A stretch of DNA of 60,755 nt, filler included, from Hausera hauseri (GCA_046269625.1; 12 parts of 12 records of this genome joined end to end with filler, not necessarily neighbours in it), one strand, 5' to 3'; positions 5,501 through 34,357 are shown, numbered from the whole stretch's first letter. Made by a program: numbers and translations. Notes: generated by a model from the letters alone, not told the origin.

Positions 5501-5565
5501 GCCAAGTGGGTTTGACTATAGAACAAAGCATTATCTGTTGGTGCCAACTGGGTTTCACTATTCCC

Positions 5566-5665: not shown

Positions 5666-6001
5666 CCTAATTATCGATTTTTGATTTTTCGAAAATCCAA
5701 TATTATTGATTTTTGCACACTTGCACATGTGCTGCACACTTGAACTTGCACCAATCGATGTGCACTCATGTGCATTATCGACTAGCACAAAACGCATATT
5801 GATTCGATCAATAGTGCACTGTGCAGAGATCGATTTGTGAAAAGTACAAAAATGTTCATACCAACGGTGCCTAACGGCACCGTTGCTAGGCACTCTTTGA
5901 ATCGATAGTGCTCCGGGTGCATTACTGATCGGCACATGTACAAAATCGATTTATCGATTATCCCCCTCCCGATGGTTCAGAACCGCCATTTTCACACTAC
6001 T
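5666..6001 (-). mobile_element. Maverick/Polinton-type terminal inverted repeat (5'-AGTAGTGTGAAAATGGCGGTTCTG...)
   Basis: The minus strand begins AGTAGT, a typical Polinton terminus. Rich in short palindromes (ATCGAT, GTGCAC, CAACGGTGCC..GGCACCGTTG). A diverged reverse-complement copy lies at 46615-46960. Confidence 0.6.
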
Positions 6002-6003
6002 AC

Positions 6004-9000: not shown

Positions 9001-9140
9001 GCAATCATCTCGCGATTTGTAGCTCTTAGGTCCAAAATGTATGCAATTCATGTATGTGATCAGATCAAAAAGAGAGCCAATGGCGTTCAAAAGGCTACAC
9101 TGGTCAAAAAGATCCGTTTTCAGGATATAGTATAAAGCCA
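6004..9140 (+). pseudogene. Maverick/adintovirus protein-primed DNA polymerase B (vOTU-like + EndoVII/HNH insert + exo + pol), many stops/frameshifts
   Basis: Motifs in order: SGWTL...SSYIQLPEWIANKNACINVLNGDNKCF; IVIYCDFKAIL; VKDH*HFTGKYRGAVCNNCNL; VVFHNLSGYDSHFI; FIDSLRFMSSSLDSLVKNL; GIRGGI; YLDANNLYGWAMS; KNDFEKDQFK; YMDTHSF; FVALRSKMY. Confidence 0.92.
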
Positions 9141-9229
9141 AGTAAAACTAAGTAACTACTATATATGTTAAGGCCAACTAATATCATAACACATTTATTT
9201 AGTAACAATATAACTTTTATATAACGCTA

Positions 9230-9700
9230 AACACTTTTAGTGTGTGTGCGCTTGTCTGTGCTTGTAAAATGTAAGTAACATGATAAAAGGTATATCATAT
9301 ATATATGTCAGTATGCTTGTACATGTAAAATGTAAGTAACTTGAGAAATGAATGATTAAAATATATGGTGTGTGCTTGTGTGCATGTCTGTGCATGTAAA
9401 GTGCAACTAACATGAAAAAAGGTATATCTCAAGTATATGTCAGTGTGTGTGTGCTTGTGTGCATGTGCATGTATGTGTATGTAACGTGCAACTAACCTGA
9501 GAAAGGGTATATCTCAGATATATGTTAGTGTGTTTGCCTGTGAGTGTTTTTCTGAGCTTGTAAAATGTAAGTGACCTGAGAAAATGTAGAGCTCAGATAT
9601 ATGTATGTGCATGTATGTAAAATGCAACTAACTTGGGAAAATGTATAGCTCAGTTATATGTCTGTATGCTTGTGCATGTGTGTAAAATACAAGTAATATT
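9230..9700. repeat. degenerate tandem repeat, ~55-90 bp units
   Basis: Recurrent gtgcatg...gtaaaatg(t/c)aa(g/c)taac(t/c)tgagaaa.ggtatatctcagatatatgt, about 6-7 copies. Confidence 0.75.
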
Positions 9701-9709
9701 TAGCTAATA

Positions 9710-9809: not shown

Positions 9810-10205
9810 AATCGATGATGGCCTATTCGATTTCCACGCCGAACTTATTAACCGATGATTCAAACATATTCTTTTCATCAAAAAAGAATCTACTTCAAGC
9901 TACGAATACAAACGATATGACTGCAAGGATAAATCCCAAAGGTTCTCATTGAGAAATAAGAAAAACTCTGATCCACTGCAAAATGACGGAGGATTGATTC
10001 AGGAAAAAGAAGCAAAGTAGCTGATGAGAGAAAACGAAGATAAACACGTTCCGTATCTCCTTCGCCGATGGGTTCCAGCGACGAATTGATACCAGCTTGC
10101 TGCAGAAACCACAAATTAGTCGGAAAAAAGTGTCAACAGCAACCGTAATGCTATTTGAGTTTCCGCAATTTGACGAAAGAAATTTCACACTTATCAATAT
10201 TTCAG

Positions 10206-10490
10206 TGGTGCGAATAACAGAAGATTGATTAGAAAGCGTTCTGAACACAATGAAGGGGAAATATTCTCCTTGGAAGAATTATCATTACATAAAGACATTG
10301 GAAAAATTGAATATATTGATAAATGGTGCCGAGAGCTGAAAATTCTCTATTTACAGAATAATCTAATTAGCAAAATAGAAAATGTTGACCGATTATCGAA
10401 ATTGGAGAATATCGATTTAGCGCTGAATAATGTTGAAATTATTGAAAATTTGGAACTGTGAATCATTGAAAAAATAAACCTGTTATTTTA
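10206..10490 (+). pseudogene. LRRC6: LRRC6/DNAAF11 (TilB) N-terminal LRR fragment, frameshifted
   Basis: VRITED(fs)[53 protein letters not shown]...[13 protein letters not shown](fs)CESLKK closely follows the conserved LRRC6 N-terminus ITEDLIRR.AEHN...[39 protein letters not shown]. Confidence 0.85.
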
Positions 10491-14441: not shown

Positions 14442-16365
14442 CCGGCTTTATTGACGGTTGTATATTCTACTGTATCAGTCGGTTCATCCGTACATCCCAA
14501 CATATATCGTTCTGCTCTGGGAAGTACTTGTTCTTCGTGAGTTTCGACGTAAGGGTAATATTCTTCTTCTTTAATGTTCGATAGCCATTTCTCGTCACCA
14601 TATATTTCGAGATCGTAGTCCAAGTTGGTCAGGGAAATTTCGAATTGTCTGGTGTAATTGAGTGTTGGTTCATGACGGAATAAGTTTTTTCTTCCATGTT
14701 TACGCTTGTATATACATATAGCAACAATCACTGTTACAACAAGTATAATACTAGTGGGTAATACAATTACTATTAGCAAGAGTTTATTGTAACTCGATTG
14801 TAGTCCCTGTAATGGCTCAACCAATGGTACCATGGTTTTTAATGTTTCATTGTTCTTAGGATAGTCTGTGGATATTTTAAAAAGAAATCTTCCTCTCTTC
14901 ATTATTTCATTAAGTGTAGGGAATTTGAATAGTGAATTTACTCCTTTTCTGAGAGTTGTGACTTCAAACAAAGCAACTGTTTTTAATCTTCGTATTGGGT
15001 CATAATAAGTTAACTGAATGTGGGCTAGATAAGGATGACCTGATATTAATTGGGCACACTCAACATGTGTGCTAGTAATCAAAAAACAGGCGCCATTTGT
15101 ATTTTCCAATGTGACGATAAAGTCAGGATCTGGCAAACTGAATATTACACGATCCGATCTTACTTGTACATAAATGTCCAATGGCTTAAAAGAAATAAAT
15201 TGAATGCGTTCGGGGGCTTGCCTTATTCCTGCTATTATGTATGGAATTTGATTATGAACCGAATAATGAAAACTACTTAACCAAAAGGTATTTGGACAAG
15301 ATTATTGTAGTTGGAGCGTGAGAAGTATCTGTCGATTATCCTCTTTCGTACACGATATTGGAGGTCGGGAGCTTGTGACCTCTACGTTATAAAGCTCGTC
15401 AGTATATTGTTTCGCAGCACATGAAAGAGCATAACTAACTCTACTGATTTGTGGTGCTACCACTAGGATTCCCTTATCGTTGAATATCTTTGCTCCAATT
15501 CGTTTATTATCTTCACTTGAAGGTGCACACGGTATTATTGGTGCTTTTCTTTCTCTTCCTGTTACCGTACGTCGCCATATACCATTTACGAGGCGAAACA
15601 TAGTGAATATTAATAAATATTCTTGGTCAGGTCATGTATATATGCAAGTCGATTGATTATGTTCTCGGAAATAGTAAACACTATTTTGCCCAAAAGTTGT
15701 ATCGGCATATCGTGTGGTTATTTGCATTACTCTACCTTTTGGGATTTTTCTATCCCATTCAATTGGTAAGCATGGCTTTTTATAATCGGGTTGGCCTATA
15801 AACACTCTTTCTTCTAAGAATGATCTGTCGATTTTGGTTAACTCTTTCTGTTCAGGTGAATTGTCCATTAAAGATAACATAACTGTTTTTGGTTTCAATG
15901 GTATCATTATTTTGAATGTTCGATCTTCATAGAGGGGTGAATTCTTATCCTCTGATATATGAATCTGTACCGAATAAATAGTCCCAGGCATAACCTTACA
16001 ACAATTTTCCCCATATGAGGACGTAGTCGTACATAACATTTTTTCTTTTCTATACAATGTTAACGTTCCCCAATTTTCGTTTAATGTTTTATTACTATTT
16101 ATCCCAATTCGTGGATTGAATAATCTCAGGGATAAGCAATTTCTTGTGTGATTATATTGAATATACAGATATCCTGGAGTGATACCTTGCGCATCCCATG
16201 GTTCTATTTTTGGAATTCTCTTCAAGTATTTCACGAAATCCGAAAATGTATTCAACGATGCTTGAGTGATTACATTTGTTGTCTTCACTGAACTTACTGT
16301 TGGCTGTGTAAATGAATCTAGTATACAACAGACCAATATTCCCATTGGTAATAATATTCGGTGGG
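14442..16365 (-). other. receptor-like module 2 (paralog of module 1) with Tyr-rich cytoplasmic tail
   Basis: LCTTTSSYGENCCKVMPGTIYSVQI; NRQILLTLQLQ*SCPNTFW vs DRQILLTLQLPSPCPNIFW in module 1; TM LLLIVIVLPTSIILVVTVIVAICIY-KRKHGRK; tail with VEYTTV. Confidence 0.55.
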
Positions 16366-16419
16366 ATATTAAATCGTGTTTAATCCGTGATGATTGGGTC
16401 TGGACAGGTCTTTTGGTTT

Positions 16420-17720
16420 TTCGGTGTCTTTTGACGTATAATAATACTACCCATATTAATATAGAAATGAGAACAATAATGGGTACGACAATTATTAGTA
16501 GCAGATATTTATCGTCTTGTTTCGTCGTCTTAATAGATGTTTGGTTCTGCACTATTATCTTATTCTCGTCTGGTACTATTTGCCGTTCCATGTGGGTATC
16601 GGATCGTTTACCGGGTGTAATCATATGACACAGTGCTATCGGTTTTTGTTGGTATATTATTTGTATAATATAAAGACATTGAGGTTTGAGACTGTCACAA
16701 CTAATAGATGTATCCTTAAATAGTGAACATTTAACTGTATCATCATCAAATGATACCATATAATTGTTATTGGGGAAGTTAAATATGGCATTTCTGTCAT
16801 TTACTTGATAAGAAATATTCAACGGTGTAAATCAAATCGTTTGAATATGTTCGGGAAGTTGTAGACCATCGTAGGATGCATGTAATGGTAAGTTGAATGT
16901 ATCAAAATAAGTGGTTCTAATCCAGAATATATTTGGGCATGGAGATGGTAATTGTAATGTCAGCAATATTTGTCGGTCACTACCTGGTACACAAATTTCC
17001 GAAGGTTCCATACTGGAATATTCTATACTATAATTTCTATCATTTGTTAGTTTCGCTGTACATGTTATAGTGTAAGTGACGTTTTCTATTCTGGGTAGAA
17101 TTCTCATAATTCCTTTAGAGTTATCGACATCGGCGTTTATTGGTCGATCAAATTCAGGTGTCAAACGACATTTTTTACCATTGTCTTTAATGGGGTAAAC
17201 TGTTCTGACTTTTGTCCTGATTGGATCAATAGTGGTCGTTTCTATGGGTATTTCAACAAAAACAGTCCGTCGCATAGTAATATTGTAACCGAACTCATTT
17301 GATCGTATAATAATCTGTAATAACAGGAAAGTTAAAGAGTAAGTGTATCCTTGAATGACTGGGCAACACTTATTATCCTTTAATTCTGAATAAGCAACAC
17401 AAATAGGTTTATTCTTTTTAAACAGTGTTATAACTTCTCTTTCTTGTCCATTTAATTTGTGTACATAGGTAATCATCAAGCACTTTCTCTTAGGATTATA
17501 ATAGATTGAAAAAACCTTGAATGTGAATTGTCGACCGTTGTTCAGATCTAAGCTCGTATTTTCTGGTAGTTTCAAATAATCTTGATACGTAATGTGTAAA
17601 TTCCGCCTTTGATCAGGGGTGAAAATCGGAGTTTAATTCAGTTGGGGTGGTAAAATTAATTGTGCCAAAATATTAGTCATGCATAATGCTATTATACATG
17701 AAAATAACGTCATTTTTCCA
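16420..17720 (-). other. receptor-like module 1: signal peptide + Cys-containing FN3-like repeats + TM
   Basis: Signal-like MTLFSCIIALCMTNILA; ICVAYSELKDNKCCPVIQGYTYSLTF; SCDSLKPQCLYIIQI (FN3-like LxPxxxY); TM YLLLIIVVPIIVLISILIWVVLLYV followed by KRHRKTKR. Confidence 0.55.
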
Positions 17721-20700
17721 ATTGGTGATTGTATACTCTGATATTGCTGACCTGACGAGTAATTATCGACATCCTGTTGATTAACCGGTTCACGGGTGTT
17801 TTTGCTCAAGATTGGTTCTGTGCTTACTATAGAATTTATATTCTGGCTGTTGTCAACGGATTGGACGTCTACCTTAAGATTTGAGCCATTCGGTTCATTG
17901 TGATTTACATCGGTGGTAGAATTTTCTTCTTCTTCCAATACTGGTTCTAGGTTAACTTTATTTTTTATGGTAGGTTTTGGAAGGAGTTCAAGTAATTTGT
18001 CAATGTTCTCTTCCATTCTATTCCAAGCCTTTTTGTCTCTGGTAGGTCCTCTGAATTTCTTTTTCTTTCTTAAGTACTGCTTTATATTAATCATGTGCAT
18101 CACCATTTCTATCATGAACCATTGACAAGGTAACTTAGTCGATATTGCTGATCTTTGGGGTATTTTAGCCAAATACTTTATTAGATATGTCTCTTCTCCT
18201 GGTAATAAATCCATTTGGGTTAATCCTAGATAAGCCATTACTCTGTTAATCCATCGGGTTTCAAGGGCTATCTTACTGTCTATTCCGTATTTTTGAGCAA
18301 GTATATCTATTCTTTCGTCATGTAATTGTACTGAACGATAATAAATTTCCAGTATGCTGGCTTGTGTTGGATTAATTGTTTCTTTATCGGTTATTTCTAT
18401 TTCCTTAGGTTGATTTTTATTTCTGTTAAAACTATGGAAAAGAATCTTTATCATGTATTGACGAACTTCTTCTGTATCCACATCAGGTGTTAGCAAAAGG
18501 TTATTGATATGAAAATATTCCACCACTCGTTGTAACACACTCTGTTGGTAATATTCGTTATCATTATAAAAGGAGTTAATATATTGACTTTTAATCCATG
18601 CTACCACACTATGAGATATGTTGAGGTGTTCTGTTCCTAATTCCCATAACACTTGGTACACCCATCTATCCATTTCTGGAGTTGGTTCGGATAGGGTTTT
18701 TAGGCCATTGTTTAAAAGTTTAGCACAAATAAGTCTGCTGTGAGTTATCTTACTTGCTGGCGTCAAAGTATCTAATAATTTAATCTTACAGCATCTTAGA
18801 TTTGACGTATTAGGATTTTCTTCGGTGATGATTCCTCGGTTGACCAAAATATCTGAGTAGTTATCGAAACATCTTCTCATCATGTCATAATACTCGAAAT
18901 CATAGAGGTAATTCAATATCGCTTGTTTTTCTCCAGTAATTTCAACATCCTCTTCTTCTGTGTTATGAATGAACAATCTTTGCCATTCTCTTTTTATAGT
19001 TTGTTCCTTTTCCAATTCTTTAACATTAGTATAATATACATTCCAGACAGGGTCGTATGTCTTACTGATTTTCTTTTGAACTTTTTCTAGCCTTGTCTGT
19101 TGTTCGGATCTAGTTCCTTCTGTTGGTTGATTAAATCCTTTATTAAAATCCTTGATTATAGTTTGGATCATTCGTTTATATCTGGAATACCTTGAATAGC
19201 CTTGGAACTCTAACTTAGTGTTGTTAAACGCTTTAATACACAAATACATTTGTGTATACTGTTTTATAGTAGGCTTATGTATTTTTATCTGATGTAATAG
19301 ACGAGTCGTCCATATTTTATTTTTATATTCTCCTTTATCATAACCGTATTTTTGTGCTGATGCTAAGATTTTCCTATCATAATACTCGCGTATTCGTAAT
19401 CTATAGGTGGCTTCAGGGTATTGTCTTCTTTCATAAATCTCCTTTTCCATTTGTAAATGTGGTGTATCGCTATTTATTCTCATTCGTGTATTATAAAGAT
19501 ATCTTCTTTGTGCTCTTAACCATTCTCTATCAAGATGTACTATTCCTAGCGCTAACCTGTCTATAAGATGTTCATTATGCAATATTTCTACTTCATGCCG
19601 AAGTTCTTCCAATATTTGTAAAATTGATTTTACTAATATCTTGTAATACTCTGTTCTTTCCATAATGTCAGTGACTGCTTCGATTAATTCTGTCATGAGG
19701 GGTTCATCTTCTAGTCCGGCTTCCCATAATAACCAATCTATCCATATATGTCTCTTATATTCCTCAGTATTGTTTCTGATGTTTTGAATTTTATGCGTCC
19801 ATAATCCATTAATTATATGGTCGTTACCACAGTCTTTCATCGATTCTCTAAGGATTTCCTTATCATGAGTTGATATTTTTAATCGTTTAGGTCTGCGTAG
19901 TGCTATATTAAGCAATTGATATAAGGATATGTCCCAAGTGACAAAGGATGTAAAAACTCCTGCATGTAGATTAAGAGGGTTTGTTTTCAAATATTGTTGG
20001 GCCTCTAGTGCTATTGTTTCTAAAGCATAGGCATCCCCTTGTTGAAAATATTGCTTTCCAGGATTATAAATATGCAATTTCAAATATTGATATTCAGGAG
20101 ATTGTCGTTTATCTGGAGACCTATTGATCTCCCACAAGAATATTCGTGTCCAAGTTTGCCTATAGGTTACTTCCATGTCTGATTCTTCTATCATTTCTTT
20201 GATTGATTCGATTTCATTATTTTCTGTTTTCAAACTCTTCGAATATTGTTGACGGAGAGAATGTACTATTTCATGTAGATTTTGTTTTGGGTATTGTTGT
20301 CTTAATTTAACTACTTCACTTTCTGCATTCATGTCCAATTTTCGTAATTTGTTAAGCATTTGTAATAGATGTGTCGCTTCATTAACTTCGATTGATCGTT
20401 CTACTTCATTTTTCTTGTATGCTTTGTATCTTTTTATTATCGCTGTTATATTTCGGTAGGATGAATTGTCCCAAGTATTTCCTTTAGTTATTTCGTTATT
20501 TCTTATTGTATCACATGATTTTAATAGTAGAAATTTGTCTTCTGCTGATACTTCCTCATACGTTTTCCCAAATTCTATTAAAATAGTATCAATTATTGAT
20601 TTAAATATATTATTTTCTGATATAATGTACCGTTCTATGGCTATTCTATTAAGTTCCCTCTGTATTTCTTCGTTATCCATCCAAGGTATATCTTCCAATT

Positions 20701-22555
20701 CTGCCCTTGGCCATGTGTGACTTTTTGTCGTCTCCTTTGTAGGATTATTTGCTGATTCTTGCAGTAAACGCTGTATATAAGGATCCTTTGACCATGGGTT
20801 TTCAGTTATCTCTATTTCGGATATCATGTAACTTAATACTATTTTCGGGGCTAGTATGTCTGAAATTTCACCTAAGAATCTTTCTCTATTAGCCTGTCTC
20901 TTCTTTTCCCATTGCCTTTTTGCAAATTGAATTAGTTCGGTTAGTTGTTCGATTGCGTAGATTGCCAATATATATGATAGAAATTTCACATACTTCGCAT
21001 AGTCTAGTTTATTTGTATTGATAGGTTGTGCAGCACAACCATTTATTAAACAGCATGTTACTAAGGTTGATAAAAGTATTGGATTGGGTCTAACATAACT
21101 TCCTTCATTTTCTTCGTAATCAGGAGGTGGTAGTTGTTTGATGGTCTTTTTATAATGTTTTATTACTCGGCAAAATCTATAGAGCGCTACCACTATTAAC
21201 GCAACTATCGTGCTACTAGCTAAACCTATTAGAAACATTAGTAGTAAAAATGATTTATAATCTATGACTGGTAAGGCCGGAATAACTGCATAATCAATTT
21301 GACTTGCTTCAGTTGAGGTTACATTAAATGCTGAGAAGACTATAGGTATTGCTAATCGTTTATAAACGTATGATGTTTTGCCAGAGACGTCATCGTACTT
21401 TGGAGGTGGTTCCTCTTTTGCTGCTTCTACATCTAATGTTAAATGTTCTTTCCTTTTCATTTCTTTTTGTATTTTATACGATCTCTTAATCAATATGGCA
21501 ATGTAACTAGTTAATGCTAAAACGAATATTATTAGTAGCATTAGTGACATCACTTCCATAGTTTGACTATATATATATATCTCCTTATTACAAGTTTTGG
21601 CCTTAGACATAGGTATCAAGCTATTCTCAATCATGTATCCACTAGTCGTTGGTAGTATAACTCGTCCGGTAGAATTAAATCGTTTATATCGATTAATCCT
21701 CTTATTGAAGAATATTATCGCTCCTATTATAAGGCTAATTAGAAGTGTCAATATTACTGAAGAAATTGTATATTCCAATATGGAAATCGGAGGGATTGTT
21801 GACTTACTGACTTGCGTTGTAGTGTTGGTAATCAATTCTGCATTGGCTTTTTTAATTAGGAAGGATGGCATAAGCATTGTCGCTGCTAAAGTAAAAGGTT
21901 TAGTTTTGAATTTCACCCAATTATTAATTTTTTCTCGACCAGTTGGCTTTCTTTGTGATATTATCCTTTCCCTTTCTAACTTAAACCTTTTTGCTTTCTC
22001 GTTCGGCATAGGTAGTGAGCAAAATATTAGGCGGTATCGAATGGCATTTATTCGACCAGTTAATCCTTCGGCATTTACATCGCACATTGAATATATATCT
22101 TGATAATCTTGTTTTGATAGTTCTTGGTTTAAATTTCGTTCTAAGTATTTATTCCATAAGATCTTGATCTCCTTTTCCTCTATTATTTGTAGCGCTTCAT
22201 CATCTAACTTATCCTTCGACTCCATTATTGAATAAGCCGTAATGCAATGTGTATATACATTTCCTTTACATTGCTTTGTTAGTTCTAATCCGAACCATTC
22301 GTATAAGGTTAAGTTATAATTAATTATACTGCACATTTCAAAATCGTTTACATAATCGTTTATGCCTGGTAATTCATCCTCTATCTGTTTCTTACCATGC
22401 TTGACTGGTAAGGGTGCTCTATCTCCTCGTAGAAATCTCGTTAAAAATTTTCTTTCGGCTTCACTTCCTACGAATAAAGGTTGGAAATCCTCATTGGATC
22501 CGATTACAAGTGTTTCATTATCATTGAAACTATGCCTTATATTTATTAAGTCCAC
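17633..22555 (-). CDS. largest intact segment (1640 aa) of the polyprotein: alternating signal-like/TM segments, two PPxY motifs, helical Trp repeats
   Basis: Uninterrupted 4.9-kb ORF in AT-rich DNA; TM stretches ISSVILTLLISLIIGAIIFF, VMSLMLLIIFVLALTSYIAILI, FLLLMFLIGLASSTIVALIVVALY; PPPKY and PPPDY. Confidence 0.8.
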   Translation of the reverse strand: MDLINIRHSFNDNETLVIGSNEDFQPLFVGSEAERKFLTRFLRGDRAPLPVKHGKKQIEDELPGINDYVNDFEMCSIINYNLTLYEWFGLELTKQCKGNVYTHCITAYSIMESKDKLDDEALQIIEEKEIKILWNKYLERNLNQELSKQDYQDIYSMCDVNAEGLTGRINAIRYRLIFCSLPMPNEKAKRFKLERERIISQRKPTGREKINNWVKFKTKPFTLAATMLMPSFLIKKANAELITNTTTQVSKSTIPPISILEYTISSVILTLLISLIIGAIIFFNKRINRYKRFNSTGRVILPTTSGYMIENSLIPMSKAKTCNKEIYIYSQTMEVMSLMLLIIFVLALTSYIAILIKRSYKIQKEMKRKEHLTLDVEAAKEEPPPKYDDVSGKTSYVYKRLAIPIVFSAFNVTSTEASQIDYAVIPALPVIDYKSFLLLMFLIGLASSTIVALIVVALYRFCRVIKHYKKTIKQLPPPDYEENEGSYVRPNPILLSTLVTCCLINGCAAQPINTNKLDYAKYVKFLSYILAIYAIEQLTELIQFAKRQWEKKRQANRERFLGEISDILAPKIVLSYMISEIEITENPWSKDPYIQRLLQESANNPTKETTKSHTWPRAELEDIPWMDNEEIQRELNRIAIERYIISENNIFKSIIDTILIEFGKTYEEVSAEDKFLLLKSCDTIRNNEITKGNTWDNSSYRNITAIIKRYKAYKKNEVERSIEVNEATHLLQMLNKLRKLDMNAESEVVKLRQQYPKQNLHEIVHSLRQQYSKSLKTENNEIESIKEMIEESDMEVTYRQTWTRIFLWEINRSPDKRQSPEYQYLKLHIYNPGKQYFQQGDAYALETIALEAQQYLKTNPLNLHAGVFTSFVTWDISLYQLLNIALRRPKRLKISTHDKEILRESMKDCGNDHIINGLWTHKIQNIRNNTEEYKRHIWIDWLLWEAGLEDEPLMTELIEAVTDIMERTEYYKILVKSILQILEELRHEVEILHNEHLIDRLALGIVHLDREWLRAQRRYLYNTRMRINSDTPHLQMEKEIYERRQYPEATYRLRIREYYDRKILASAQKYGYDKGEYKNKIWTTRLLHQIKIHKPTIKQYTQMYLCIKAFNNTKLEFQGYSRYSRYKRMIQTIIKDFNKGFNQPTEGTRSEQQTRLEKVQKKISKTYDPVWNVYYTNVKELEKEQTIKREWQRLFIHNTEEEDVEITGEKQAILNYLYDFEYYDMMRRCFDNYSDILVNRGIITEENPNTSNLRCCKIKLLDTLTPASKITHSRLICAKLLNNGLKTLSEPTPEMDRWVYQVLWELGTEHLNISHSVVAWIKSQYINSFYNDNEYYQQSVLQRVVEYFHINNLLLTPDVDTEEVRQYMIKILFHSFNRNKNQPKEIEITDKETINPTQASILEIYYRSVQLHDERIDILAQKYGIDSKIALETRWINRVMAYLGLTQMDLLPGEETYLIKYLAKIPQRSAISTKLPCQWFMIEMVMHMINIKQYLRKKKKFRGPTRDKKAWNRMEENIDKLLELLPKPTIKNKVNLEPVLEEEENSTTDVNHNEPNGSNLKVDVQSVDNSQNINSIVSTEPILSKNTREPVNQQDVDNYSSGQQYQSIQSPIGKMTLFSCIIALCMTNILAQLILPPQLN

Positions 22556-24713
22556 AGATCATATCTTCTCTATTAATTGTGGTATGGTTAATAGTTGTAG
22601 CTCGTGCATGATTATTAATTTATGTATCGGATTCTTTAAGCAAACTGATCGTATTCCGCACCTGTAATTCCAGGCTTTAATCAATTCATGCATGGGGTTA
22701 TACCATGAGAGTTTTATTCCTGATACATTCATAATTTCATCAAATATTCTTAAGCCAGAACTATAAATCATTCTTTCGTTCTCGTACTTTTCTCTAAAAG
22801 ACTTACCTTCAATTATTGCTTCCTTAGCTAGCTGACATCGAAAGCTAGTGATTAGCAATAGATTATCTTTCATTGGATGAATATTGGGGTTGTAATTCGA
22901 TTCTTTTTGATATTGTTCAAAATATTTCTTATACATGTCAATGTAAAATGATATGAGTTCTTTTCTTAGATGGACAGACAAACTCCATAGATAATTTGCG
23001 TATTGAATACTTTGGTGAATATCCCAGCCGTTTTTTTGACGAGAAGTTATCTCGTTTTGATACATTTCTAGTTTACCATTTCTGTTCGGATTGAGTCGTT
23101 TAATACTTTCTTTCTATTCCAACTGCATTACATGTTTGTCTATGGTCATTAATCATAATTCTTTTATCTGGGGCTTGATCAAGCGTAGTTACAGGGTTTC
23201 TATTATTCAAAGGTAAGTGAGTTACTCGATTAGCGACGGTATATAATTCGTATTCCTCCGTTGATAATTCGTGTCGTTTTCTGCGAAGCTTATTTATATG
23301 ACGAAATATTGGAACGACTTCGTTAACAGTCAAATATGGGTGATCTGTCACTGATTCTACCCCTTGGGCGATTAATGCTACGATTATTTGTGTCTCTTCC
23401 GAGAGTACATCAAAAGGAGAATAAATTTCTTCTTTTATATAATTGATTATGTCTTCATTTTGAGTTATTAACTGTAAATAGTGTTGATTAAGTTTCAGAT
23501 ATTTAGCATAAATAGCCAAGTTTAACTGAACTGACATATTTAGATCCAACCACCCCTCATCTTGTTCAAATCCTCTAACGAAAACTTGTCGTTCTCTTTA
23601 TCTTCTTGTATTCTTTTACGTTCATAACTCTCTATTTGCCGAGATAACGGTAGGTGTGTATATATGGTAGAGCTTTGAGATTTATTCACTTCTAATTGTT
23701 TAATGCAGTACTTATCTTTGTGATCAATATTTTCATGCTCGAGTGACAAGGATTTATTTGTCGCTATCTCCTTTAATTGTGCCGTAGTTTGACGTTTTAT
23801 TAATTTTGTTTTGATAGTTGGGACTTCTTCTAATACAGTATGTCCTTCAATCGGAGTAGTATCCTCATCGCTAGTTGATTGTTTAGTTGTTCTCATATGG
23901 AACATTAGATTAATCAATATTATCAGTATTCACCAAGTCAACGAACTTTCTGGTATATTTTTTGATATCGTTGGAGCGGCTTCTGCTGTTCCAAACAATA
24001 TAAATGGAATGATGAGTAATATTAATATTGGGTAAGTTAATCCGATACCAATTGTATTGAACTGGTTACTATTAATTGATATCTGTTCATATATTTCTTT
24101 TTCTTCATTAATATTCGAAATGCTTTCCTCAGTAGGTTCAGTTTTATTCATGTCGGTATTAATACCACTAATTACCTGATTGTTAGGGTTATTACTTCTA
24201 ACTGCCGACCAGAAAGCGTCATTCTCCTCCTTGAAACGTTTATCCGTGTATTCCTCCATCTTGGATAATTTTTTATTATAGTGTAACCCTAAGATTTGCT
24301 TGTCAAAAGCATTTGATTCTCGGAGACTCCTTATCCTAACCGCTGTTGTTTCTTTATTATTACCCATCCTTTGTCTGCAAGTGCTTATTATTCTTTTTCT
24401 TTCTTCTTTAAATGGTCTAGCTATTTCATTATTATCAGGTAGTTCGCAAAATATTATATGATACCGTACGGCATTTAATTTACCAGAAAATTCACTTGCA
24501 CTTACAGTATCAAATTTATGTATATCCATATAATCCTCTGGGGTTAATATGATGTTCTCATCTCGTTCTATATAATCATTCCATACTATCCGTGCTTCGC
24601 CTTCCTCAAATAGTTTAATATCTTCTCGAATAAGATCATCCTTTATAGCCATAAGTGTGTAAATCATCCAGCAGTTAATCGCATAAGTTTTAAACTGGGA
24701 ATTAATATTTAAC

Positions 24714-24813: not shown

Positions 24814-26330
24814 ACGCTTTTACAGAATCAGAAATCAAAAATAAGCGAGAGTTTGTACAGAAATGGCAGAGGGACGTAATTATTGAACTAAGCGATTATC
24901 ATCAGAAACGATTCATCAATTATATCGAATTAGGCGATTTACTGAAAATTATTCAGTATGCCTGTGGAAACGGAATAGGGTTTCGAACTACCCAGATAAA
25001 AGAAATACAACCAAAATTGAAAGAAATTCGAGAAAACGTACAAAGAACGAACACAGCCCTAGTAGACTACGGACTTCCAGATATTGGGAATGAACCAGAA
25101 TGGAATGCTTATTTAGAAACAATAACAGCCGAAAATCGCATATCTCCGGTATATCTAAATGAAATAGAAATGTACCTGCAGAACAGGAAATTTAACGTGG
25201 AGATGCTCCTGAACTCAGCGTTAACCGAAAATGATTTGATTGAATTAATTAATGTAAATGTTACTGAAAATAAGCTCAGACAACGCATTTTGACTTTGAC
25301 TAAATTATGCAGCGAAAACATAATTTACAACACCTTGCCGAAACTTTTAATAAAGAAGTATGCGAAAATTTGGAAAGATAAACCTGAGATAACGATGAAA
25401 ATAAGGATATCATCTGAATAGATGAATGAAAAATAATGTGAGTAACCACTCATTCCTACATAAAGGACGTAATAAAATGGTTATTATATAATGGCGGAAC
25501 AAATGAGCTAAATTATAGATTTTACTTTAGAGGGAGAATACTCGACGATTTAGAAAAGTTAATAAATTTCGGAATTATCCCCGATGAAACAAACCGGATA
25601 GTAGTAATAATATCCAATGAACAGACGAAAGAAGAAGCCACGCGAAAAGCTAAAACGGAACAATATGTAGGGCAAATCATGAAAGTACGAGATGCCGCAA
25701 TGTATTTCGAGTATTTACAGATAGATGAAGACAAGGAACAATATGACAAGAATCTAGTGCCATTAAGTAGAATGTTGACCAATGTCCCGAGACGAAACGT
25801 CCAGTCGGTAGACCGAGGAAAGCCAGAGAAGAAGTTGACTATAATGGAAAATTGATTAAGGATTTGAGGCAAATGTCGATTTCTACCCTTAACGCAGACA
25901 ATGAGGAGTTAAACGAGTTAGTGAAAAATTTAATACGTATCGTAAATTATTCAAGTCTTCGCGGAGATACATTAGACGAGAAAGAAAAAGCGATATTTAA
26001 CGCAGCTAGGACAGTGAGAAGTTTGCGTTTTAAGCTGTCAAAAAGTAGCTTAACTGACGACGCAGTAGTTGAGAAAATTATGGTGGAGAATATGACAGAA
26101 GAGCTAAGAAAAGTATTATTGTACTTGGCGATCAAGACAAGTCCAAATCGAGAGGATGAACTAAATTGAGCTACAAGCTTGGCACGAAAAGAAGCTAGAA
26201 AACTTCCGTGTAAAGTAAATTGACCAAAATTATTCGACAAGAAAGAAGACAAAAAGAATAGTAGTAACGGACTCGGAGATATTATACGGAATTTAACGAC
26301 AACAGAAAATAACAACAGAAAGAATGAATC
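24814..26330 (+). pseudogene. degraded helical polyprotein region upstream of the glycoprotein
   Basis: Frame open from the contig start (KREFVQKWQRDVIIEL...PEWNAYLETI); contains motifs resembling those of the 14442-24713 polyprotein. Confidence 0.5.
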
Positions 26331-26339
26331 AAATTGGTT

Positions 26340-28681
26340 AATCAGCTTACAACCATAATGATGCTAATGAAACAGATGGGTGCTGTTACTGTCTACGATT
26401 GCGATAGATGTAAGCTTGGACAAAAATATTCACTAATGGATTTCGAAGCATGCGAAGATGCCAGACCACACAAATTGGAAACAAAGGGGAAGAGTTATTT
26501 CCTATATTAACAACAAGAGTTAATGTCCTTGGATAGCATGGAATGTATGCTAAGACAATCTCGTAGTATTTTCCACTGTAGATTAATGCATGGACATTCC
26601 TCAATAATTAAACCAACAATCCCTCCAATTCCAATGAATTTGGAAAGACAACATTGCAAGCAAGCCCGAGAAACCGGAAGACTAAAATGGGACAGTATAA
26701 AACTAGAAATGCAGCCCGGAAAGATAATCTTAGCATACAAGATAATAGTTGGAAGGCTCGATATGAATAACGGACACTGCAGCGGAGAGGAATACGACAC
26801 CGGAAAAGGATTAGAAGCGAACTTAGTAGTAGGGGACTTTTATGAATCAGAAATGCGAGTACAGAAAGTGATTTTCCATAGCCTTACTAAGCTATATACC
26901 GAGAATCAAAAATGTCACATACAAGACGAAACCTGTACTTTCAGAAGCTCTATCGTCATATGAGAACCGCTCGTTGAAAAGGCTGTAATTTTATTAAGAT
27001 TAAGGAATTGAAGTTTAATAAAACTACTGTGACACGATACTTAGACAAATCCGATATCAGTTCAAGAACACCTACGATATTAATCTCTGATCAGCATGGA
27101 TTGAAATTCATAAAGAAAAGGAATGATTTCACGTTGTGAAGTAGTAATGTTCACCACTAACTATGTAGCCTTTGTCGTCGCAGAAACGGAGGTAAACGCG
27201 AAAACATATAACTTAGATACTCAAAACGTTCGAATCGAATATTACCTAAAAAACCGAGATGATTATTTCTATTATAAAGGGCAAGTCGGAATATCCGAAT
27301 TATACCATAAAATGATAACTAATGATTGCAAATTGGATACGGAAATTATGAGGACAAAATTAGCTCTTATTTATGCGAACCCTAAGTTAGACTCATCGAT
27401 TATTCCAATGAGAGAAGGAATCTTCGGCCGAGTTACTGTCGAGATTCTACCGACATGAGTGCGAGAAGAGATGTACCAATTAATGTCGCAGAAAAACGAT
27501 GTATACAAGAACTCCCCGTGATCTATCAAAACACTCCACGCCTAGCCATGCCCCTCACCAGGGTGTTGCTAAACAACGCAACATAACCTACAATCTTAAA
27601 GAATTGTAAAATAAGTTTGGGTGAACGAAACGGATTGGGTTAGCTTAACTAATGTAGGTGTCACTATCATTCATAAAAAACTAACTGGAACTAATTTAAC
27701 AAAAGGAATTACTGATGACAAGTTTCAGAATACATCTCAAAAAGGTATTTATAGGCTTAAAGAAATCGACGCTTTTCGGCAATTTCTCGCTTTTCCACGG
27801 CAGCCAACACACGAACTAAACCGAGCTATGGCATCAGTAGTAGACGATACCCGTTATCAGGCCAAATGGGAATCCCTGCTTGGTGCAAACCATTACCAAC
27901 GGGTAGCCACGGAAATACTCTACAAAATATGGGGAAAGTTTTTAATCTTTGGACAAGCTGCATCTGGATTTTTAGCAATCGATTTCTTGGTACAACTAGT
28001 AAAAGCGGTAATCCAAGCGGTTATAAACGGGTACGAAATATCACGCTAACAGGATTTTCCTGCAAGATCTTAATCGCAATTATCACGCCTTTCGGCAAAA
28101 TGCTTAAAGCATATGAAAAAAATCGATGGAAAAATGAAGTTGAACACCATGTCGGCTACCATAATTATAAACGACGAGCAAGATCCACAGTTCTATTGAA
28201 ACGCAAAGCTAAGAAATCAATGACACGAAGAGATAACTCCGATGATGACGAGCCTAAGGGAGGAGAAGCAATCCTCAGACAAAATAGACACAGAATGTAT
28301 TCAGTGATTAAGGCACAGTTACCCATCATGCAACCGACAGCTCCAATATATGAAGAGTGCGACAGAACATCTATTGTATCATACAAATCGGAAACTCATC
28401 GCAAACCCTTCAGCTATGAAGACCCTTATAAGGGAACAAAACAATATGGAGTATTAAAGAAAATGAAAATCACTAATCAGAGACGAGCGGAAGATGACCA
28501 TAAAATATTATACTCACCAAGAATAGCTCGTAATATAGAGTCAAGATCGACAGTTTGGGGAATACAAGGAATGAAAACGCCCCAAAATCCATTAGCACCA
28601 GAACCATTAATTAGAAACAATGCAAATAGCATAGCGATTAATGACTTATATCTTAACGAAGAACTGAAACAGTTGATCTAA
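26340..28681 (+). pseudogene. chuvirus-like (Jingchuvirales-type, class III/gB-like) envelope glycoprotein with long cytoplasmic tail
   Basis: Signal-like LTTIMMLMKQMGA then VTVYDC...YSLMDFEAC; CMLRQSRSIFHC..HGHSS...QHCKQARETG; IVGRLDMNNGHCSG; ELYHKMITNDCKLDTEIMRTKLALIYANP...GIFGRVTVEIL; GIYRLKEIDAFRQFLAFP; KIWGKFLIFGQAASGFLAI...INGYEI(fs)TGFSCKILIAI. Motif order follows chuviral G consensus as I recall it. Confidence 0.8.
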
Positions 28682-28750
28682 AATATCATTTAATCACCAG
28701 AAATAACGATAAACGAACATAAGATTTCTTCAGTTAAGCGACCAAAGGAC

Positions 28751-29554
28751 GTGTCAAGTTGTTATGGAACAGTTATGGAAGGGAGACCCTTCACAAAAGT
28801 TACCATTGAAGATAGGGAAGTCTATGCCTTAATCGACACTGGATCAGAGAAATCGTTTATCAAATTAGAATCAATACCGCCGATACTACGGAAACAATTG
28901 CAGCCAGCATCGTCGTCAGATCCAGGTAGCATAGGAGCTTTCGGGCAGGAATCCAAACCGAAATTTAAGTGGAGTCCCTTAGTTCAGTTAATGTATCAAA
29001 TTCTTCGACACGCGTTTGCCGTAATGGATCAGCTAACCGATGATGTAGCATTAGGTTGCGATATACTGAAACAATTACCTAATATCGCAATAAATTTATA
29101 TACTGGAAAACTACTGGAACTTGAACCAGTGAAAGGTATTAAAACAATAAAAGAAAGGAAACTAGGAGAGGTATGGATTCCCGTCGACGAAAATATTCCG
29201 CCCAGAACCGAAATGTTAATTTGTGCTCAAATCCGTGAAGAGGACGACCAACCAGTATACTTTGAACCACAAGACGTTAATCGAAATATCATACTTAGTA
29301 ACGTTTTGACAAGAGCAATGACAGGAAGGGTACCAGTCAGATTAGTGAATAATGCACCGACTTACGTACAATTATATGCCAATACCACCTTGGGTCATAC
29401 TTATAAGGTATCGGCAATAATAATCGAAGAAAAAACAAATATGCTGAATTTCCACCTCATGTTGAAACTAAGTTTTCAGCAGAAGCATATTGCCAATTTT
29501 ACGAATTATTATGCAAATATAAGTCGATTATTGCTCAAAATGAAGAAAATATAG
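28751..29554 (+). CDS. Ty3/gypsy aspartic protease plus degenerate dUTPase-like spacer (fragment of pol)
   Basis: VYALIDTGSEKSFI ... DVALGCDIL; then IPPRTEMLI...VPVRLVN...LYANTTLG. Confidence 0.85.
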   Translation: MSSCYGTVMEGRPFTKVTIEDREVYALIDTGSEKSFIKLESIPPILRKQLQPASSSDPGSIGAFGQESKPKFKWSPLVQLMYQILRHAFAVMDQLTDDVALGCDILKQLPNIAINLYTGKLLELEPVKGIKTIKERKLGEVWIPVDENIPPRTEMLICAQIREEDDQPVYFEPQDVNRNIILSNVLTRAMTGRVPVRLVNNAPTYVQLYANTTLGHTYKVSAIIIEEKTNMLNFHLMLKLSFQQKHIANFTNYYANISRLLLKMKKI

Positions 29555-29579
29555 GTAGAGCAAGAACATTAAAACTAAC

Positions 29580-30104
29580 CATTCCATTAAAAAAGAAACC
29601 TGGCTCCAACGACGAAATTGATCTGGAAGAGCAAAAGATGCCAAAATGGTACCCACCGCCTCATTCATTAAGGTCCTAAATAACTAAAGAAGTAAAACGT
29701 ATGTTGAAGGTTGACATAATACGACCAAGCTACCTATTTTCGTATTCACCAATACTCATGGTCAAGAAAAAGTGTACCACCAAACATCGATTCTGTATAG
29801 ATTACAGAGCCCTAAACACGCTTATGATGAAGGACTCATTCCCACTACCGTCAGTAAAGGAAACATTAGACAGATTATCAGGAACAAAATGGTTTACCAC
29901 ACTAGACTTACAATCAGGATATTGGCAAGTAGAAATTGAAGACGATCGTTATAAAACAGCAATTAAGACGCACGACGAAGTTTACGAATTTAACGTCATG
30001 CCGTTCGGTATAACAACCGGCCCAGCCATCTTCACCAGAATGATGAATAAGATGTTAATGGGACTAGATCACGCGTTCGCCTATTTAGACGATGTAATGA
30101 TAGC
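29580..30104 (+). mobile_element. Ty3/gypsy reverse transcriptase (truncated by contig end)
   Basis: HRFCIDYRALN..MKDSFPLP..ETLDRLSGTKWFTTLDLQSGYWQV...YEFNVMPFGITTGPAIFTRMM...AFAYLDDVMI (YLDD). Confidence 0.95.
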
Positions 30105-30204: not shown

Positions 30205-31149
30205 AACTTTTTCCTCTTTTTGACCGACTTTCACACTTTTCCCAAACATGCGAACCAAATGCTTCCTACATTATTCGAACGCCCATACTCTACTCTACAT
30301 TTTCTCTTATCCATCCCTAATCAAATTTTGCTACTGGAAAAAGTTCGTTTTTTTCTTTTGCATTGCCCGGCTTTCTCTTTTGCGACACAGGAAATCTCAC
30401 CGCACAACTGAACTCGCCGTTGTCGAAATGACAAAAGAGCATGCGAGCCGCTTGTGATTGGTCAATTGGTGCGTGGGTGGACCCCACCTCTAAATATTAC
30501 CCGCATATTACGTATTACATATATATTATATTACTGCTTTTTACTAATTGCGAAAAAATGTAAGTACAATTTCGATTTTCTTTCATATTATTGTATATTT
30601 CAAGAACTTTTCGGTAAATATACCTATTACTTTCGATAAAGAATGTATCTTTGTTTAAATTACTTACTAGTGTACATAATCAAAAAATTGTACGTTTTAA
30701 CAATTTTAATAAAAATTTATGATCCCATTTAATTTAACAATATATTGTACAATTTTGTTAACAGAGCGAATTGGAAATTACAAAATTCGTCTTATTTTTT
30801 GATGTTTTGGGAAACGGTCCTTAGTCGGTTAGCTAATATTCATTAAATAAAACATCATAATTTGTGTGGTTTCCAATCGGGGTATAACTTATGCCAATAG
30901 TACCAACCATAAAAAATTGACATCCAGAACTTAGAAATTTCCTATTAAGAGTAAATATAATTTGCATATTTGAATTCACCATTACCGTCCTATACAGAAT
31001 TTCATCAAAATCTGCGTTGTCGTATTTTTCGTATTGGCTTGATGAAATGGTTGAAAATATTGAAAATATATTTGAAAATGATACTGAAAATGTGAAAACT
31101 TAGAATTTCTATCGTTGGTTTCCACCGGTATCAGTGCAACAACAGTTCT

Positions 31150-32260
31150 GGGTCTTTCAATATTGGAAAATTGAAGCAATTGAACTATTTTGTTAAATTG
31201 AAGGATCTTCTAACAGAGATAGAAAATCTTAATTCACTCGAACTAATATCATTTGACATGTCTGGTTCGGAAAAGTTGACAATGCAATTACCTGCATCGG
31301 TTAAAAGGAATTCCTGCGTCAAAAAAAAGAAAAGAGATTTCAGTATTGACAAAAGTGAACAATTTAAGCTTTCTACTTGTGATTTGTCTTATGATGATCC
31401 TTTAGTGGCGGGTATAGTCCATATGTTCGGCCTTATCGTTTTTTTCAAAAATGGTGGAGACGTTATACGCTGCTCGGCGAAGGCCGGAATGGATATGTTT
31501 GGTTTAGCTGAAAAAAGAATAGGAATGCAATGAGAATGCACTCTAATGGATTGTTTATTTTGCCTCATTTGGCATGCGTCCAGACGAATTCTATACCAGC
31601 TATACGGATAGAGTGTACAACATGAACGAATGTCATTTTTATTGAGATAACAATAATGTGGTTGTTTTATGGATGTAGAGATTGGGTCAAACCATATGCT
31701 GATTTCAAATTGAGAGGGTTATAGCTATGTGGTGTGGAAATTCGTGCACGGAGGTTGTTATTTGAGATTGATACTGGAAACCTCAATATTATCTTCAAGG
31801 AATTGAGCAATAAAAGGGTTACGCGAAAATACATCGGAAGTTTCTAATATGTTTATCTCTCGGTAAGTAGGAAGGTGAAAAATCATATTTGGCTCCCAAA
31901 GGATGGTATTGGTATTGTTTACTTGCAATGTTATATAGTACGTGTAAGTCCTAACGTAATTGACAGAGCAGCAAGTTCTAGTATGTTTTTCAAGGATAGT
32001 ACATACAGAGGAGAGATTATGTTGCTATATAAAGACAAAGTTAACCGTGTGGTGTCTCATTAGCTGTAGATGGGTTTAAAGGCACATACTGGGTTTATGC
32101 GTTTCTATACTGATAATCGTAGTTCGTGCAATCAATCCAGTTTGTAGGGTAGTCGTGGTGTTTCGATTAATGTCAGCGATCGTAATAGGTATTAAGAGCT
32201 CGAGGGAAAGGGGAATAAAAATACCCAAATATATATTAAAAGTGAAGTAAACAGGGCAAT
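31150..32260 (-). pseudogene. post-integrase ORF: signal-like segment + two C-x9-CC FN3-like domains
   Basis: Continues the integrase C-terminal frame: FTFNIYLGIFIPLSLELLIPITIA; HKPSMCL*; VCTILEKHTRTCCSVNYVRTYTYYITL; YCYLNKNDIRSCCTLYPYSWYRIRL; scattered stops. Confidence 0.55.
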
Positions 32261-32299
32261 GTTCTGAGCTTCTCTTCTGGTAAATTTTGCACAATGCCG

Positions 32300-33498
32300 C
32301 TATTTTGGGTTCGTCCGTTTTGGTTATTCCTGGCTTTATTTCGTGTATAAAATCGTTGTATGGAGTAGGAGCGCAAGTTACTCGTTGAACAGACACAGCC
32401 TCGTATTTATCTGGCCCTTTCTGAACAAAAAGTGTTTGTGGGTGTACATCGACAACTTTGTACGATACTTCACATGTATGTGTTAATTTTAATGATTTGC
32501 CTTTCTTCACCACGGAGTACTGAATTATGATGTAATCCCCAATTTTATACGTATGTAGTCACGCCTTCTTGTTAAATTGCTTTTTATATCCGGCTTTACA
32601 GTTCTGTTCAAACTCTTTTGCTTCTCGTTGAAAATATTCGAGTCGCTTGAGCAAATTCTGTTATTGTTCATCCATATGATCATTGGTAAACAAGGGTGAT
32701 TGTAATAATTTCGTACGTAATGGTAGAAAAGATAGACGTCCAAACATTAATTCAAAAGGGGAATGATTGGTACTTTTGGTAGGTGTAGTGTTGATTGAGA
32801 AAGCTGTAGTTTTCAAATGATTGTGCCAATCTTTGTAGAAAGAATACCCTGAATGGTACGATTCATCCTTTTGATCATACAGTTACATTGAGGATGGTAT
32901 GATGTCGTCAATAAATGTTTGCATTGGAATATTTTTGATAATTTTTCAAAGAATTCGCTAATGAAATAGGGTGAAGGATCAGTTAGCAGCTGTTTCGAGG
33001 TACCCAATACGGCAATAATTTCATAGAAAAAGGCTTCAGCGACGGTACTACTAGTCATGTTTTTCAATGGTACCTGTACAACGTAGCGAGTGAAGTAGTC
33101 AACAAGTGAAAGTATATATTTGTATTTTGAATCCGAAGCTGGGAATGGCCCAGAGATATCCATTGCGCACATTTCCATTGGATTACGAGCTTAAAGTAAG
33201 CTTCCTAAAACGGTTTGATACGATGTCCTCTATCTTTCCTTGTAGCGCACATTTTGCATGAACGTACCCATCCTTCAATATGTTTATTTATTTGAGGCCA
33301 ATAATATTTAGCAGTTATACGCTTCAAAGTCTTATTTAAAGACGGATGGTCAGCTAAGTGTGAATTATGTTCTTGTAGCATGACGGCTTTGATGGCCGGT
33401 GCAGACACCATAACCAGTTTTCGTTCCTCGATTCCTAATCGTAAAATGCCGTCTTCGATTTCTAAATTCGCTCGGTTCTTGTCATAAAACTTTTGCAT
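32300..33498 (-). mobile_element. Ty3/gypsy integrase (H2C2 zinc finger, core, C-terminal domain), degraded
   Basis: EHNSHLADHP...KYYWPQINKHIEGWVRSCKMCATRK; AMDISGPFP...KYILSLVDYFTRY...LLTDPSPYF...TTSYHPQCN. Confidence 0.92.
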
Positions 33499-33532
33499 GT
33501 GATTTGATGCGAGTCAACTAACTGTCCATTGA

Positions 33533-34357
33533 TTAGTTGCTTACTTGAACAATAAAGAGATCTTGGTTTTGTAAAATCTCGACATTTTGTACTTGGATTT
33601 GGTGTTGTTCTTGTAACATATCGTTAATTATTTTCTCATTCCAATGTTTGTCACTCTCGTTATCTAATGATTTATAGGCTGCGGCTACTATTCTTTCGTA
33701 TGGCATTTTTAAAAGTGCGTCGGCATCCATGATTTCTTTGCTAGGACGATATCGATACTCGAGATCATAATTTAAGTTCCAACTTCCATCCGAACGTAGG
33801 GATAGCAGCGCCTTGTGGTCGGTAAATATTATAATCTTATGGCCGTAGACATAATATTCGTAATGTCGCAATCCATTTCGGATGGCTAATAGCTCTAGTT
33901 CAGTAGTTGAGTATTTCCGTTTTGCATTATTCAAGCTACGTCCGCCGTAGGCGATTACATGTTCCGTTGCTTCTTCTGGATTTTGCTGAGCTAATATAAA
34001 ACCAATAGCTTTTATGTTACCATTAGTCTTCAAAATGAACGGTAATGAAAAATCCGGGTACCTCAATATTGGGGCTGACACCATTCGTTTTTTTATTTTA
34101 TCGAATGCGTTTTGGTTCTCTTCGGTCCATTCCCATTTTTGATCTTTTTGTAATAACCTATATTGAGACTGATTAATTTCTGCAAAATTGGGGATGAAGG
34201 TAGCATAAAATCCTCCAAATTCTAACCAGACTTTCATTTCATGAGCACTGGTTGGAGATGTATTCCAGTATTTTAGTTATTAACTCAGGGCTGGTTGATA
34301 TCCCTTTACTGGAAACGACAAATCCCAGGTATCTAACCTCCTTATACCATTCGCATT
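33533..34357 (-). mobile_element. Ty3/gypsy RT C-terminus/tether and RNase H, degraded
   Basis: FIPNFAEI...WEWTEENQNAFDKIK..MVSAPILRYPDFSLPFILKT...VIAYGGRSL...YSTTELELLAI...FTDHKAL. Confidence 0.92.

Follow-up and report, generated by a model that had tools for sequence, protein, structure and literature searches.

A reading frame of ~3,420 codons in the genome of Hausera hauseri (GCA_046269625.1) is a multicopy open reading frame (ORF) under purifying selection. Its product is read here, in an interpretation that falls a little short of probable, as a polyprotein that would be threaded through the endoplasmic reticulum (ER) membrane and cut by signal peptidase into single-pass proteins, two of them tiny PPxY adaptors of Nedd4-family ligases. 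The frame occupies the minus strand of one of the twelve contigs which, with N spacers between them, make up the 60,755-nucleotide stretch analysed (the window), and it spans the entire 10.3-kb contig 14442-24713. The initial annotation of this DNA had described a repeated unit consisting of a signal-like segment ending in a small-residue site, a short lumenal peptide, a transmembrane helix (TM), a basic cluster, PPPKY or PPPDY, an acidic stretch, SYV and the next signal.

The giant frame and its cassette region

Contig 14442-24713 breaks off inside the frame on both sides, and its other two minus frames contain >320 stops each. A stop-free part of 1641 codons (22558-17636, minus strand) contains every cassette motif quoted in the initial annotation, and a 2,890-codon piece (23113-14443) served as the basis for counting PPxY motifs and for assessing selection over the wider frame.

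Read in the direction of translation, the cassette region opens with a weak signal-like segment ending in KKANA, a 24-residue loop and TM1, whose basic tail lacks PPxY and leads into a non-hydrophobic spacer. TM2 follows with a 44-residue tail carrying PPPKY and SYV, a short signal-like segment ending in STEA and an 18-residue loop. Next come TM3, a 33-residue tail carrying PPPDY and SYV, and a short segment ending in GCAA, after which a 15-residue loop and a marginal TM4 give way to 1,047 soluble residues. The features are as follows.

14443..24712, minus strand: giant decayed frame, open at both contig ends, with 6 in-frame stops and ~23597-23100 in another frame
21839..21895, minus strand: putative signal 1, with a weak hydrophobic region (h-region; 21895-21854) and ending KKANA (21853-21839); not picked by the signal rule given below
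21707..21766, minus strand: TM1, predicted type-I orientation, PPxY-less tail; 6 lysines or arginines (K/R) on the C side, 1 on the N side
21599..21661, minus strand: site where a second signal would be needed, not signal-like in the window copy; best 9-residue hydropathy 0.8
21488..21550, minus strand: TM2, predicted type-I orientation; 7 K/R on the C side, 1 on the N side
21395..21409, minus strand: PPPKY, 27 residues past TM2 in the 44-residue tail with 9 lysines; a conserved island in other copies
21365..21373, minus strand: first SYV, following PPPKY
21305..21355, minus strand: putative signal 3, composed of KR, a 10-residue h-region (21355-21326) and STEA (21316-21305); listed copy differences silent or hydrophobic-keeping
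21179..21250, minus strand: TM3, predicted type-I orientation, after the 18-residue loop; 6 K/R on the C side, 1 on the N side
21116..21130, minus strand: PPPDY, 17 residues past TM3 in the 33-residue tail with 4 lysines; sole listed copy difference silent
21092..21100, minus strand: second SYV, following PPPDY
21029..21079, minus strand: putative signal 4, with a 12-residue h-region (21079-21044) and GCAA (21040-21029)
20951..20983, minus strand: marginal TM4 after the 15-residue loop, no PPxY; 19-residue hydropathy 1.13

The proposed regular series of PPxY cassettes is thus reduced to two PPxY units, one of them without a recognisable signal. The full unit (TM, basic cluster, PPPxY, acidic stretch, SYV and short signal) does recur in tandem, twice and not three times, and KKANA does not begin a PPxY cassette, since the next helix is TM1 with its PPxY-less tail and only then comes TM2. 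Two further sites had been said to obey the same logic. At GTAEA|AP the pattern of a 12-residue loop and a helix fits, although that helix is broken by a stop in the window copy; at NILA|QL a 385-residue ectodomain follows instead of a tiny peptide.

Purifying selection across copies

The family is present in 4 sequencing runs of 4 differently coded organisms, with 20,490, 3,703, 175 and 436 matching contigs. These contigs, mostly <95% alike with transition-rich differences, cover all 30 bins of contig 14442-24713; the best-matching organism, perhaps one near the source, does not count as independent. RNA data are absent from the runs listed as carrying the family. Copy depth is highest over TM3 and the two PPxY blocks, but depth is no ranking measure and was not used as evidence.

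A likeness of at least 80% was required for a contig to be placed, and 40 of the 58 differences within 21080-21440 are listed. Among these 40, 28 are silent, against an expectation of 31% (p 5e-7; crude dN/dS about 0.19), 29 fall at third codon positions, and 8 of the 12 replacements exchange one hydrophobic residue for another. Over the wider frame (14443-23113) third positions account for 19 of 31 listed places (p 0.001), the 31 being 40 listed rows minus 9 above 23113, with 2,684 further rows outside the list.

Conservation of PPxY across element copies, which the initial annotation had put forward as a check, is borne out: both blocks are kept in other copies, no listed difference alters a PPxY residue, and the two that fall within PPPxY codons are both silent. 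The small residues at -3/-1 of STEA are likewise unchanged among the listed differences. In run X4, five listed contig pieces (records 19-23) match only ~21389-21440, the PPPKY block, and then pass into unlike sequence; in run X3, one contig matches the PPPKY block and TM3 across a spacer that is diverged but equal in length. Loose ends begin just outside the motifs, at 21139, 21389-21393 and 21429-21437. The inclusion of SYV in the unit holds insofar as it follows both PPPxY motifs, but the first SYV lies in a stretch that is diverged in other copies.

Duplication of the PPxY unit

The PPPKY and PPPDY units resemble each other at the protein level (score reached in 0 of 1000 shuffles) and at the DNA level (1 of 500), and their tails alone are also alike (4 of 2000). 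Judged by this resemblance, the two units are tandem duplicates. The 2,890-codon piece holds only these 2 PPxY motifs, and the remaining coding frames of contig 14442-24713 hold none. In 20,000 shuffles, two PPxY motifs arise in 2,890 residues with P=0.043 and two PPPxY motifs with P=0.00025; because PPPKY and PPPDY are duplicates they are not independent and count once.

Membrane topology and putative signals

Topology was judged from hydropathy and charge. Five helices are strong: TM1, TM2 and TM3 of the cassettes, and TM5 and TM6 of two modules further along the frame, E1 and E2. All five carry 6-7 K/R within 15 residues on the C-terminal side and 1-3 on the N-terminal side (sign test p 0.03 for the bias), and by charge all five are predicted to be oriented N-out/C-in. 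The PPxY motifs, lying past C-in helices at the distances listed above, would by the charge rule alone be cytosolic, in agreement with the initial annotation; lumenal placement was not seen.

For one C-in helix to follow another, the chain must pass back into the lumen in between, so that five C-in helices out of five call for re-entry signals in the intervals. A crude signal rule, combining a short h-region with small residues at -3/-1, picks the segments ending in GTAEA, STEA, GCAA and NILA as well as the E2 signal, placing a candidate upstream of 5 of the 7 stop-transfer helices, and it finds no site in the 1,047-residue soluble part. The 9-residue hydropathy maxima are 2.3 for the STEA and GCAA signals, 1.8 for KKANA and 0.8 for the TM1-TM2 spacer. 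Hydrophobic regions of 10-12 residues are too short for ordinary membrane spans. An alternation of signals and stop-transfer helices is the simplest predicted reading of this arrangement, with a real gap at TM1-TM2 that may reflect decay of the window copy, a hairpin or a non-canonical signal.

Proposed processing and function

If the polyprotein is processed in this manner, its insertion into the ER membrane would be co-translational, with the short hydrophobic stretches ahead of STEA, GCAA, NILA, GTAEA and E2 serving as re-entry signals to be cleaved by host signal peptidase. Cleavage would release two proteins of receptor-like build, large pieces held in the cytosol by the helices on either side, and three or four tiny type-I proteins. 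Among the latter, the TM2 and TM3 products would measure ~100 and 95 residues with the downstream signal counted in, and would bear lysine-rich PPxY tails. By analogy with UL56, UL42 and U24 of herpesviruses, these adaptors might bring a Nedd4-family ligase to host membrane proteins, or sequester the ligase, and so send those host proteins to endosomes and lysosomes.

Several observations weigh against this scheme. KKANA fails the signal rule and TM4 is marginal, and nothing signal-like lies ahead of TM2, the helix that carries PPPKY. The rule is itself unspecific, returning 2 real sites against a mean of 2.0 in 1000 shuffles of the region and firing at 3 places inside ectodomains; as it is equally frequent in shuffles, the small-residue sites taken by themselves could arise by chance, and it is their placement that constitutes the argument. 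Both PPxY motifs represent one duplicated motif, and a single PPxY is expected in ~28% of cases (shuffle mean 0.33). The 80% threshold and the 18 of 58 differences outside the list bias the copy comparison towards conservation, and no homolog outside the family was found against which to check the architecture.

The same weak points, namely the want of a good signal ahead of TM2, the weakness of KKANA and TM4, and a signal rule that does no better than shuffles, would suit a single uncleaved or partly cleaved polytopic protein. Its short segments would be signal-anchors or re-entrant helices and its PPxY loops would control its own turnover, the lysine-rich tails themselves being able to accept ubiquitin. 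We regard such a protein as unlikely: a normal helix needs more than 10-12 residues to span the membrane, none of the listed copy differences touches the small -3/-1 residues of STEA, and E1 and E2 display the classic layout of signal, ectodomain, TM and tail.

Cleavage could also proceed as in the signal-peptidase scheme and yield PPxY tails with a different task, acting as membrane-anchored late domains that link Nedd4 and ESCRT to the budding of enveloped particles. PPxY is a classic late domain, and an envelope-bearing gypsy element lies in a neighbouring contig. To our knowledge, PPxY late domains occur in Gag or matrix proteins and not in accessory type-I proteins; the cassette region and the modules below 17750 contain neither PT/SAP nor YPxL, and a link to Gag was not seen. 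Moreover, herpesvirus PPxY membrane proteins lowered the yield of retroviral vectors and gave no aid (PMC5849660). A budding role is therefore quite unlikely, and the analogy with viral adaptors favours removal of host proteins.

Cellular counterparts offer a further comparison. Commissureless, PRRG and PMEPA1 are cellular PPxY membrane adaptors, and TMEM127 reportedly is another. The cassettes share with such adaptors a short outer part, a TM, a basic patch and a PPxY at most ~30 residues from the membrane; unlike them, they are encoded by a multicopy element, and no homology was detected. Among viruses, UL56 of herpesvirus, ORF0 of varicella-zoster virus (VZV), UL42 of human cytomegalovirus (HCMV) and U24 of human herpesviruses 6 and 7 (HHV-6/7) are Nedd4-family adaptors with little sequence similarity, and Ndfip is a cellular PPxY membrane adaptor (PMC5849660). 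The viral adaptors are small single-pass membrane proteins with a cytoplasmic PPxY, as is predicted for the giant frame. In contrast, they are products of separate genes and are termed ‘TA proteins’ in that source, whereas the PPxY of the giant frame stands C-terminal of a type-I helix within a polyprotein (PMC5849660).

Homology searches and the carrier element

The giant-frame protein is an orphan, with no relative in the libraries searched. The cassette region has no relative in a 5.8-billion protein collection, and residues 1-1199 of the stop-free segment (22558-18962) gave 0 matches at E up to 0.001 among 1.84 billion representatives. For the giant frame, IMG/VR, JGI metagenomes and PDB sequences were all blank, and its ORF pieces gave only sub-threshold matches to Pfam, with no BCL2 domain among the pieces scanned. 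Homology to flavivirus, bunyavirus or alphavirus glycoproteins yielded no significant match in Pfam, PDB, IMG/VR or the libraries, and neither a class II fusion protein nor an RNA-dependent RNA polymerase (RdRp) was detected in the giant frame.

The carrier is likely a giant long terminal repeat (LTR) retroelement, and the element is likely mobile; from neighbouring contigs and codon usage only, we infer that it is a Burro-like gypsy element. On contig 24814-30104 (plus strand), a decayed gypsy element has a mononegavirus-type fusion protein, with three Pfam PF24664 matches (26511-28046), ahead of protease (PR) and reverse transcriptase (RT), which is the env-PR-RT order of Burro. Codon usage of the giant frame correlates with that of the ORFs of this contig at 0.83 and 0.82, the samples being of unequal size; the trypsin gene of the host reaches 0.61, and the values for Polinton-like ORFs range from -0.07 to 0.50. 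High copy number and decayed copies are likewise shared with Burro-like gypsy elements.

In the available portions of the literature, planarian Burro is described with env-PR-RT order, an internal region of up to 25 kb and a 4,873-residue ORF1 (PMC6431247), its expression is the subject of a separate paper (PMC8532177), and GAG-ENV-POL elements, which also place env ahead of PR and RT, are known in flatworms, bryozoans and nematodes (PMC13524379). Burro/GYPSM1 and the GAG-ENV-POL errantiviruses resemble the present element in their giant ORFs, thousands of copies and ubiquitination-linked accessory domains; unlike it, they carry no membrane-cassette polyprotein described in those portions (PMC6431247; PMC13524379).

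Assignment to this group is weakened by three findings: no RT, integrase, Gag or LTR lies within contig 14442-24713, the Burro accessory domains BIR, MATH and ankyrin are absent from the ORF pieces scanned against Pfam, and codon usage correlates with that of the other gypsy contig (30205-34357) at only 0.61 and 0.47. The lack of RT, integrase and LTR would also suit a host gene family that lacks introns and has expanded, or a portion of some large DNA virus or transposon integrated in the genome, as would the Polinton-like remnants elsewhere in the window and the non-significant homology (HMM, hidden Markov model, E 0.27) to the post-integrase region of contig 30205-34357. An origin of this kind is very unlikely, given that a >10-kb single frame with stops scattered through one copy, kept by selection in numerous diverged copies, is what a transposon family presents, and that codon usage is nearest to that of the Burro-like gypsy contig.

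Both gypsy contigs bear additional features. The long frame upstream on contig 24814-30104 has a weak ubiquitin-like hint at 25442-25630 (PDB E 0.2-0.6) and a weak AT-hook. The fusion-protein remnant of this contig found no relative in IMG/VR or among the 897-2560 aa proteins of the 5.8-billion collection, a weak negative. Contig 30205-34357 (minus strand) encodes gypsy RNase H and integrase, followed by an apparently in-frame hydrophobic, signal-like stretch; at ~32250-31390 (minus strand) it has a Cys-containing beta-rich region whose layout recalls E1 and E2, with homology that is not significant. Comparison of E1/E2 with the post-integrase region, their best match other than to themselves, gave E 0.008 pairwise besides the HMM value above, and was rejected as evidence.

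Relation to known polyproteins and retroelements

Flavivirus C-prM-E-NS1, bunyavirus Gn/Gc and alphavirus E2-6K-E1 are polyproteins processed by signal peptidase. As in these, a stop-transfer helix, a basic tail and a putative internal signal would alternate within one frame. Unlike them, and without homology to them, the giant frame belongs to multicopy integrated DNA with up to seven cassettes and is marked by 12-24-residue loops, long soluble spacers and PPxY tails.

The sORF2/FAST-like proteins of MDG1-group retrotransposons are, like the predicted cassette products, tiny, N-out/C-in, equipped with a polybasic patch and encoded by retroelements; they differ, in the available part of their description, as stand-alone small ORFs that are mostly myristoylated, whereas the cassettes are embedded in a polyprotein with signals and PPxY (PMC11952523). 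That the small cassettes are themselves FAST/sORF2-like cell-cell fusion proteins passing the retroelement between cells is most improbable: a 15-24-residue ectodomain, one TM and a polybasic patch do match sORF2, and tail 3 has an amphipathic stretch (moment 0.83), but none of the predicted sites would expose an N-terminal glycine, the loops are weakly amphipathic (0.17-0.46) and shorter than the ~30 residues reported, and the cassettes sit inside a polyprotein and bear PPxY, which is not among the sORF2 features in that part of the source (PMC11952523).

Each ingredient is already known, and the combination was not found described: no retroelement with PPxY cassettes in a membrane polyprotein of the signal-peptidase type emerged from a search of the open full-text literature. 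It is possible, though on the doubtful side, that a giant animal retroelement packs host-modulating membrane genes in the style of large DNA viruses, for ubiquitin-ligase adaptors, duplicated receptor-like ectodomain proteins and large cytosolic domains, into one >3,400-residue polyprotein released by signal peptidase, new modulators arising through in-frame duplication of signal/TM cassettes. Retrotransposons are usually viewed as minimal gag-pol(-env) machines. If the suggestion is true, a transposon would give as much coding space to remodelling of the host surface as herpesviruses and adenoviruses do, by way of a processing trick of RNA viruses, and its cassettes would offer the smallest examples in nature on which invertebrate PPxY membrane adaptors could be studied. 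Should only the conservative part hold, what is left is a large protein family without annotation, for which a search of 1.84 billion representatives with residues 1-1199 of the stop-free segment returned no relative.

Other modules of the frame

Outside the cassette region, the frame contains the following modules.

24326..24676, minus strand: soluble helical domain, copy A; 42% identity to copy B over 117 aa (E 1e-25)
23891..24070, minus strand: cassette 0, a signal-like helix ending GTAEA, a 12-residue loop and a second helix stop-broken in the window copy
21902..22249, minus strand: soluble helical domain, copy B, followed, like copy A, by a signal/loop/TM cassette
17760..20902, minus strand: soluble charged region of 1,047 residues, no TM or signal-like site, presumed cytosolic
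16433..17713, minus strand: module E1, with a NILA-ending putative signal, a 385-residue Cys-containing ectodomain and TM5 with a basic C side
14443..16357, minus strand: module E2, with a putative signal, an ectodomain of ~500 residues homologous to that of E1, TM6 and a tyrosine-rich tail

The E1 and E2 ectodomains share 25% identity over 396 aa (E 5e-30, pairwise comparison), and the two appear from sequence to be homologous receptor-like type-I modules. Each contains internal repeats of ~110 residues around a Cys-Cys/Tyr motif (14443-17713), and tyrosine and acidic residues are abundant in the E2 tail. AlphaFold models from two-row alignments reached a predicted local distance difference test score (pLDDT) of 32 and 35, too low for fold assignment; by impression only, the ectodomains may be fibronectin-III-like. 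The soluble region 17760-20902 has no significant match in Pfam, PDB or the libraries, the 1.84-billion search having reached down to 18962. Cassette 0 shows no significant homology to cassette 1 (score reached in 164 of 500 shuffles) or to cassette 3 (221 of 500), nor is TM4 significantly similar to an upstream soluble helix (49 of 500).

Other contigs of the window

The remaining contigs hold gypsy remnants, Polinton-like remnants and one trypsin gene, a content that points to a repeat-rich invertebrate as the probable host. Polinton-like remnants occupy 1-9709 and 56632-60755, with matches to protein-primed PolB and endonuclease VII in 57829-60230 and decayed ORFs resembling Polinton-like ones in 5666-9709; possible pieces of structural genes, recognised by eye, lie at 2475-3647, where Pfam was blank for the two pieces scanned. 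A decayed leucine-rich-repeat (LRR) piece at 10174-10458 (plus strand; Pfam LRR_4) tentatively recalls the motile-cilia factor LRRC6. The trypsin-family protease gene at 53723-54569 (plus strand) has a signal-like start and two frames, as if one short intron lay between them. Related repeat families of 73-106-nt and 85-90-nt units, at 35590-36805 and 41520-41944 on two contigs, encode Pro/Lys/Thr-rich repeats on the minus strand and possibly belong to another giant element. A 211-nt element with an internal palindrome occurs in opposite orientation on two contigs, at 5747-5957 and 46660-46870, and is possibly a terminal repeat or a miniature inverted-repeat transposable element (MITE).

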